Sequence record: PQ571289
DNA length: 64,000 nt
Reading direction: 5' to 3' (one strand)
DNA from: Escherichia phage EF1-1
Part shown: piece by piece, positions 59,905 through 60,623 of the stretch
Layout: every line of letters begins with the position of its first letter
Numbering within the stretch: position 1 is the stretch's first letter
The notes under the pieces: model-generated
The model's input: the letters and a program-made list of their open reading frames with translations, nothing else
The model's database searches: none
Told to the model about the DNA's origin: nothing
Translations under genes and position numbers: made by a program

Positions 59905-60094
59905 TATGGCACGTTTAGCAGATAACCCTGTATTCTACCCCGTTCTTGATCTTTATGATGAATTGACATATGTTGTGGAGCGGTATAACTACAATGAAGA
60001 TCTTTTGGAGACAAACCTTAAAGTGGTCCTGATGAAAGCCTATCAGAAAGGGCAACGTGAAATTTTGGAGAGTATGAAAAATGCGAATAACTGA
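59905..60094 (+). CDS. small hypothetical protein
   Basis: SD 'aaaggag' before the ATG at 59905. Confidence 0.4.
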
Positions 60095-60623
60095 TGATTA
60101 TGTATTCTTCTTTTCACATAAAGATGTGTTTAGTAATTGGTATATTGCACCCTTTACAGAAACCGAACCAGGTTACAATCAAACATTTAATTGTGTCGAA
60201 CAATATATGATGTGGCGTAAAGCTTTGCTTTTTAATGACCACAACACTGCACAGGCTATTCTGACTCATAGCTTGATACGGAAAGATGAGAAGATCCAAG
60301 CTTATTACAAACGTATGGGTAGGGCAGTGTCGGATTTTGATAACAACGTATGGGAAGAGAACCGTGAGCGTATTGTTATGCGAGGTTTATGCTTGAAATA
60401 TGTACAGAATCCAGATTTGTATGCAGACTTACACCTTTACCAATACAAAACGTTTGTTGAAGCAAGTCCTTACGATAAGGTTTACGGTATTGGAATGGGA
60501 ATGTATGAACCAGGGGTGCTAAACCCTGCCACCTGGAAAGGGCAGAATCTTTTAGGCAAATATCATAATAAACTGATCGAAATACTTTTCCCAGACAAAA
60601 TACCGCAAAGACGATATTTGTGA
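60081..60623 (+). CDS. NADAR-domain (YbiA-like) protein
   Basis: FFFSHKDVFSNWYIAPF...FNCVEQYMMWRKALLFND pattern typical of the NADAR/YbiA family. Confidence 0.55.
   Translation: MRITDDYVFFFSHKDVFSNWYIAPFTETEPGYNQTFNCVEQYMMWRKALLFNDHNTAQAILTHSLIRKDEKIQAYYKRMGRAVSDFDNNVWEENRERIVMRGLCLKYVQNPDLYADLHLYQYKTFVEASPYDKVYGIGMGMYEPGVLNPATWKGQNLLGKYHNKLIEILFPDKIPQRRYL

Follow-up and report, generated by a model that had tools for sequence, protein, structure and literature searches.

Phage enzymes that counter host defences based on NAD+ or ADP-ribose have been described in several systems. The BASEL phages Bas60-62 encode a NADAR protein (Johannesman, Carlson & LeRoux; PMC11257639): when NADAR^Bas60 is expressed ectopically, three DarTG1-sensitive phages regain replication by several logs, and the protein neutralises DarT1 in uninfected cells and is of no help against DarTG2 (PMC11257639). 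Phage T4 holds an orphan NADAR, AdfN, directed against DarTG1, and an orphan macrodomain protein, AdfM, directed against DarTG2; AdfM is Tk.4, and a transposon screen combined with a clean knockout established that T4 needs Tk.4 to resist DarTG2 (HIDEN-SEQ; bioRxiv 10.1101/2025.11.20.689424). In the NARP1-AP operon, Adpp converts ADP-ribose-1''-phosphate, the product of the NAD+-degrading defence aRES, into ADP-ribose, and NARP1 then rebuilds NAD+ (Osterman et al., bioRxiv 10.64898/2026.01.28.702374); an associated macrodomain is present in only about 15% of 859 NARP1 operons (bioRxiv 10.64898/2026.01.28.702374). We analysed a stretch of 64,000 nucleotides from Escherichia phage EF1-1 (sequence record PQ571289), hereafter the window, which carries a NADAR gene and a macrodomain gene:

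60081..60623, plus strand: NADAR-domain protein of 180 amino acids (Pfam PF08719), predicted guanine-N2 ADP-ribosyl DNA glycohydrolase, orthologue of NADAR^Bas60
40801..41274, minus strand: stand-alone macrodomain protein of 157 amino acids (phrog_335, AlphaFold/Foldseek), member of a phage 'GQY' clade

It is probable, at about 0.7, that these genes encode two independent, stand-alone ADP-ribose hydrolases acting against NAD+/ADP-ribose-based host defences. The NADAR protein would strip ADP-ribose from guanine N2 in single-stranded phage DNA and would thereby undo the replication-blocking modification of the DarT1 type (DarTG1), acting as an orphan 'antitoxin' that has no toxin partner. The macrodomain protein would act at position 1'' of ADP-ribose and hydrolyse a substituent there, on either of two putative substrates: the thymine-linked ADP-ribose that DarT2 attaches to DNA, as for Tk.4/AdfM of T4, or ADP-ribose-1''-phosphate produced by RES-domain NAD+ phosphorylases, from which it would remove the phosphate, as Adpp does. 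For both proteins, we infer that they carry the activities measured on their homologues.

An earlier reading of the window from its letters alone (the sequence-only reading) had placed a NADAR gene at 60081-60623, and family searches bear this out. The open reading frame (ORF) starts with ATG, a GGAGAG ribosome-binding site precedes it at a distance of about 9 nt, and its product matches PF08719 over residues 11-161 of 180 (E 7.8e-36; 124 bits, cut-off 35.1), phrog_1017, the NCBIfam model TIGR02464 (113 bits, cut-off 73.7) and a solved NADAR, PDB 8bau (E 3.8e-15). Residues E40, K47 and E127 are invariant in an alignment of the protein with 23 homologues, and correspond, in a HMMER alignment to 8bau, to E43, K50 and E125 of the NADAR of Phytophthora (P. 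nicotianae). The latter are equivalent to E88, K95 and D171 of the E. coli C7 NADAR, and mutagenesis has shown that these catalytic residues are needed both for the hydrolysis of guanine-linked ADP-ribose and for rescue from DarT1 (PMC11543638). Homologues are found in 718 phage records; at least 80% protein identity is reached in 70 records, about the same number as carry the Ter/phosphoribosyltransferase region of the genus. Beyond the phage's own group the closest relatives, 40-48% identical, are NADARs of bacteria and phages that likewise stand alone, in line with the published placement among bacterial NADARs that have no DarT association. In the phage database the homologues bear labels as diverse as 'hypothetical protein', 'GTP cyclohydrolase II', 'YbiA-like N-glycosidase', 'DNA methyltransferase' and 'swarming motility protein'; several of the labels given to homologues of the NADAR protein, of the macrodomain protein and of a neighbouring PRTase_3 protein are misleading.

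The window belongs to Phapecoctavirus, in the subfamily Stephanstirmvirinae, and represents a phAPEC8-like virulent E. coli myovirus, the genomes of this genus being about 150 kb long. A megablast search against phage genomes returned the phAPEC8-like phages nepoznato, anhysbys and phAPEC8 at 94-99% nucleotide identity to the regions of both genes. The window aligns nearly end to end with anhysbys, and the coordinates of both genes coincide with coding sequences annotated in the RefSeq entry of that phage, 98-100% identical. The phi92-like phages Bas60-62 form the sister group of Phapecoctavirus (PMC8594841). The gene of NADAR^Bas60 is bas60_0111 of Escherichia phage PaulScherrer (Justusliebigvirus), to which our NADAR ORF is 59% identical (E 2e-69), and both stand in the same gene order: an FtsH-like ATPase, an endonuclease-like gene, the NADAR gene and a long gene-poor stretch. 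Given this shared position and the 59% identity, the NADAR gene of the window is, by position, the orthologue of a gene whose anti-DarTG1 action has been validated by experiment, and by this orthology it may be expected to have an anti-DarTG1 function of its own.

NADAR proteins also occur as the antitoxin, DarG1, of DarT1-NADAR operons. Here, no DarT1 toxin gene lies beside the NADAR gene, which has a homing-endonuclease-like ORF and two small ORFs of no assigned family for neighbours, and the protein has no N-terminal extension, its domain beginning at residue 11 of 180. We therefore regard it as an orphan enzyme, and the DarG1 candidate was ruled out on these two grounds.

The macrodomain gene, also called at 40801-41274 by the sequence-only reading, is marginal by Pfam (Macro PF01661, 23.3 bits, cut-off 22) and is firmly placed by other means: a match to phrog_335 (E 5.6e-55), sequence matches to the solved macrodomains SCO6735, BT1257, TARG1 and DarG, and an AlphaFold model with a mean pLDDT (predicted local distance difference test) of 94, computed from an alignment of 52 sequences. 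The best PDB matches of the model in Foldseek are TARG1, BT1257, DarG and Poa1p, with TM (template modelling) scores of 0.77-0.82, or 0.73-0.82 when SCO6735 is included. The ADP-ribose-binding asparagine (N26) and the glycine-rich segment G126-G132 are conserved. By sequence and by predicted fold, the protein is assigned to the TARG1/ALC1-like class. Neither phrog_335 nor fold comparison discriminates among functions, and both were dropped for this purpose: phrog_335 matches Adpp, PhiKZ AdfM and our protein alike, and TARG1, DarG, Poa1p, BT1257 and SCO6735 all lie at similar TM scores. Homologues are known from 2,934 phage records; 'phosphatase' is among the labels that they carry in the phage database.

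Active-site residues separate the protein from the best-known members of its fold class. In a HMMER alignment, Q83 stands opposite the catalytic lysine K84 of TARG1 and A130 opposite D125; K80 of DarG and the FPTK motif of PhiKZ AdfM, a DarG2-like anti-DarT2 enzyme (PMC13309987), likewise align to Q83. On the NCBIfam DarG model the protein scores 33.9 bits, where the cut-off is 250, and PhiKZ AdfM is matched by BLASTP at E 0.012. Candidates of the DarG/PhiKZ AdfM type were consequently ruled out by the glutamine in place of the catalytic lysine and by the score far under the DarG cut-off, as was TARG1 (OARD1) by the absence of the K84/D125 dyad. The sequence-only reading had proposed an ADP-ribose-related anti-defence role for both proteins; published experiments on the homologues NADAR^Bas60, Tk.4/AdfM and Adpp support that role. 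A DarG-like mechanism for the macrodomain protein is not supported. The further argument that a protein lacking the DarG lysine would not act against DarT2 was withdrawn: T4 Tk.4, a genetically defined anti-DarTG2 factor, also has glutamine at this position.

The substrate of the macrodomain protein can be approached through its two experimentally studied relatives. The closer is Adpp of Vibrio phage Gary (KNV71_gp137; sequence from Table S1 of bioRxiv 10.64898/2026.01.28.702374), which is 41% identical over the full length (E 4e-36); its H24, the residue whose replacement by alanine inactivates Adpp, corresponds to H23. NARP1-adjacent macrodomains of Pakpunavirus and of phage VCM are 41-47% identical to our protein (47% for VCM). 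With Tk.4 of a T4-like phage, identity is 37% over 124 amino acids (E 1e-21). In a neighbour-joining tree of 19 sequences, which lacks support values and serves as an indication only, a single clade marked by the motif N-x-Y-(G/T)-Q-(Y/F) unites our protein, its relatives from Justusliebigvirus and Seunavirus, the NARP1-linked macrodomains and Tk.4; SCO6735 and BT1257 form the sister group of this GQY/TQF clade, and the lysine-type DarG, PhiKZ AdfM and TARG1 fall outside.

Sequence thus appears to favour an Adpp-type activity, but genomic context does not. A tblastn search with the Adps and Namat proteins of PaoP5 and with an NMNAT/Nudix protein as queries recovered nothing from the window or from the closest relative's full genome; no NARP1-type gene is annotated in that closest complete relative, and a search for NARP1/NARP2 partners in the window and in that genome was empty. 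These absences weigh against an Adpp role, the more so as Adpp was without effect in the published assay unless Adps and Namat were present (bioRxiv 10.64898/2026.01.28.702374). Against a role in DarT2 reversal stand the weaker match to Tk.4, the purely genetic nature of the Tk.4 data and the lack of the DarG catalytic lysine, which Tk.4 shares. Because the situation resembles that of T4, with no NARP1 and with an orphan NADAR accompanying an orphan macrodomain, we rate DarT2 reversal slightly above dephosphorylation of ADP-ribose-1''-phosphate: the former is our tentative first choice, the latter a serious possibility, and some other substrate a less likely outcome. The first two activities need not exclude each other in the same protein.

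Around the macrodomain gene, the neighbours named in the sequence-only reading were recovered by Pfam and PHROG matches, and are listed here as context only:

41287-42114, minus strand: PRTase_3 protein (PF15610, E 1.7e-41)
42107-42763, minus strand: HAD hydrolase (weak in Pfam; phrog_14393, E 2e-117)
39513-40487, minus strand: TerC-family membrane protein (PF03741, E 3e-40)
36188-37300, minus strand: TelA-family protein (PF05816, E 3.2e-33)

Within 36188-40487, the TelA and TerC genes, together with an SprT-like metalloprotease gene (37297-37887), make up an abbreviated Ter-like set. The PRTase_3 protein, a type I phosphoribosyltransferase, has no sequence relative among solved structures, and the HAD protein has only a weak hit; homologues of the former are labelled 'orotate phosphoribosyltransferase' or 'Zot-like toxin' in the phage database. 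For phosphoribosyltransferase and HAD genes of the Ter type, the making of a nucleoside-like signal is itself no more than a prediction, and their proposed role in phages is competition with other phages (PMC7824862).

This setting suggests another explanation, in which the macrodomain protein and the adjacent PRTase_3-HAD pair, possibly with TerC and TelA, would serve one pathway, either by trimming an intermediate of the Ter 'nucleoside-like metabolite' or by feeding an NAD+ recovery that replaces NARP1. The macrodomain gene shares its strand with PRTase_3 and follows it after a gap of 12 nt, the five-gene order HAD, PRTase_3, macrodomain, TerC, TelA is kept in Justusliebigvirus and metagenomic relatives whose macrodomains are 65% and 52% identical to ours (the metagenomic contig with the 52% macrodomain adds a TerF-like vWA protein), Adpp-like macrodomains usually adjoin NARP1, itself a phosphoribosyl-transfer pathway, and in a Rhizobium phage the PRTase_3-HAD pair stands two genes from an NMNAT/Nudix gene. 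Yet a conserved order within a single lineage is expected even where there is no functional coupling, and outside that lineage the association breaks in both directions. PRTase_3-HAD behaves as a portable cassette: the two genes stand together in 156 phage records that span unrelated groups, Stephanstirmvirinae among them, and in phages of Rhizobium (Kleczkowskaviridae), Xanthomonas (jumbo phage XaC1) and Brevundimonas it has no macrodomain, TerC or TelA gene within about 5 kb. Conversely, a relative with a 56% identical macrodomain keeps TerC and TelA and lacks the phosphoribosyltransferase and HAD genes, a Seunavirus relative at 50% has none of the four within 5 kb, and the corresponding genes of Pakpunavirus and T4 are located elsewhere, beside NARP1 and beside tk, respectively. 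The adjacency therefore shows the pattern of lineage synteny and not that of an obligatory module, and with a phosphoribosyltransferase that has no relative of solved structure, we consider a single pathway unlikely. A related and still less probable idea is that the orphan Adpp-like macrodomain and PRTase_3-HAD, joined in Phapecoctavirus by a fold-orphan protein of 201 amino acids, would form an undescribed pathway of their own instead of a leftover of NARP1-AP. This pathway would start from ADP-ribose-1''-phosphate, or from ADP-ribose set free by host NADases, and would yield a new nucleotide or a new nucleoside, or NAD+ again; were this true, the Ter genes for a 'nucleoside-like metabolite' would be connected with the arms race over NAD+. 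Any involvement of the cassette in the question of the macrodomain substrate is low-probability speculation. The same facts bear on the suggestion, made in the sequence-only reading, that the NADAR and macrodomain genes are functionally linked through this neighbourhood. A distance of 19 kb separates the two genes, which lie in different blocks and have opposite orientations, and their sole connection is the general co-occurrence of both domains in large phages (PMC9503650); with the dissolution of the macrodomain/PRTase_3-HAD/Ter adjacency outside the lineage, the suggestion is not supported. In our reading, the NADAR and macrodomain proteins would act separately, and neither demonstrably depends on the Ter/PRTase/HAD neighbours.

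The remaining doubts concern what the proteins do with ADP-ribose. Several points weigh against two enzymes of counter-defence: the activities are known from homologues outside Phapecoctavirus (59% and 37-41% identity), which leaves room for a change of specificity; NADARs whose in-vitro activity is conserved differ in vivo, with neither YbiA nor T4 gp30.3 providing rescue from DarT1 (PMC11125620); and our NADAR protein passes the NCBIfam model for a riboflavin-intermediate N-glycosidase. The last point opens the way to a reading in which the NADAR protein would be a metabolic N-glycosidase of the YbiA type, active on small molecules such as the ribosylamino-pyrimidines of the riboflavin pathway or soluble ADP-ribose derivatives, and not on DNA. 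Besides the TIGR02464 match ('riboflavin biosynthesis intermediates N-glycosidase'), this would agree with the glutamate at E127, which marks the YbiA subfamily, with the database records labelled 'GTP cyclohydrolase II' or 'YbiA-like N-glycosidase', and with a comparative genomics study arguing that phage NADARs mostly target soluble ADP-ribose derivatives (PMC9503650). The TIGR02464 model is, however, a broad one, as the Bas60 orthologue does not group with YbiA in the published phylogeny (PMC11257639). Moreover, phages facing DarTG1 are rescued by that 59% identical orthologue, which also neutralises DarT1 in cells (PMC11257639), E. coli YbiA itself hydrolyses guanine-linked ADP-ribose in vitro (PMC11125620), so that the label is compatible with DNA repair, and it is not apparent why a virulent phage would require riboflavin damage control. 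A small-molecule role for the NADAR protein is thus improbable. More improbable still is that one or both proteins would work without catalysis, as binders or inhibitors of defence proteins or by soaking up a signal derived from ADP-ribose. ADP-ribose binding comes naturally to macrodomains, but all known NADAR catalytic residues are invariant in our protein, the histidine needed for Adpp activity is conserved in the macrodomain protein, and the nearest tested relatives of both are enzymes (PMC11257639; bioRxiv 10.64898/2026.01.28.702374). Two stand-alone hydrolases remain the explanation that we prefer.

The surroundings of the NADAR gene hold features of a different kind. Upstream of its block lies an element of mobile character:

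58535-59533: homing-endonuclease-like ORF (CapR domain and weak T5orf172/MUG113, treble-clef matches)

This ORF is 63% identical to its counterpart in anhysbys, and the flanking genes are 97-100% identical, a difference which indicates that one allele of a mobile endonuclease was replaced by another. Directly after the NADAR gene, about 1.35 kb (60624-61972) contain no supported gene and are about 93% identical in relatives. An AT-rich block at 60843-61173 (25-33% GC) holds iteron-like direct repeats, of 72 nt in two copies, 29 nt in three copies and 51 nt in three copies spaced 29 nt apart, as well as a 22-nt inverted repeat; a GC-rich block at 61150-61900 (48-54%) holds an ORF of 88 amino acids (61433-61699, minus strand) that has no family match. 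No Rfam or tRNA match was found anywhere in the window, this gene-poor stretch included. Possible readings of the stretch are an origin, a regulatory region or a small insert of foreign DNA.

Both genes belong to families whose counter-defence roles were published between 2024 and 2026, so that the finding is real and largely explained already. Its practical interest lies in the use of phAPEC8-like phages in phage-therapy cocktails: the genes suggest that these phages are equipped against DNA ADP-ribosylation of the DarTG type, and possibly against NAD+ phosphorolysis of the RES type, which helps to predict host range on strains that carry either kind of system. The wider question concerns the role of Adpp/Tk.4-clade macrodomains in phages devoid of NARP1, and whether one clade serves both the de-ADP-ribosylation of DNA and the dephosphorylation of ADP-ribose-1''-phosphate. 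The closest complete genome, NC_052656.1, further encodes, in a part not covered by the window, a Sir2-like protein and a 'DprA-like' protein (73450-74265 and 79285-79866). DprA is a member of the SLOG superfamily. With these genes, the NAD+/ADP-ribose toolkit of the phage exceeds the NADAR and macrodomain proteins. Pakpunavirus PaoP5 likewise has a DprA-like gene, only a few genes away from its macrodomain gene.

Among described systems, the NADAR protein is nearest to NADAR^Bas60. Both are single-domain proteins of similar size (183 amino acids in Bas60, 180 here), and they share a lineage-specific insertion at residues ~63-75 as well as the invariant catalytic residues; NADAR^Bas60 comes from a sister genus of the same subfamily, however, and 41% of its residues differ. 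AdfN (T4 gp30.3) and the DarG1 NADARs have the same fold and, by prediction, the same chemistry of guanine-ADP-ribose hydrolysis, but AdfN has a histidine at the position of E127, and DarG1 proteins have the N-terminal extension and the DarT1 neighbour that are both missing here.

The macrodomain protein stands between two known systems. With Adpp it shares the motifs AH(Q/C)CNC, GD.SKLG, N.YGQY and GxGxAGG(D/N)W, a long loop after GQY and the catalytic histidine, yet Adpp works within the NARP1 operon and depends on Adps and Namat against aRES, whereas the phage analysed here comes from a lineage without NARP1. AdfM (Tk.4) of T4 is likewise an orphan macrodomain protein, in an E. coli myovirus that also has an orphan NADAR, and it belongs to the same clade and has glutamine in place of the DarG lysine; its loop, which follows a TQF motif, is nevertheless 7 residues shorter than that of the Adpp group and of our protein. 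DarG, PhiKZ AdfM (gp104) and TARG1 share the fold class (TM 0.77-0.79) and the asparagine conserved as N26, and differ as lysine-dependent glycohydrolases.

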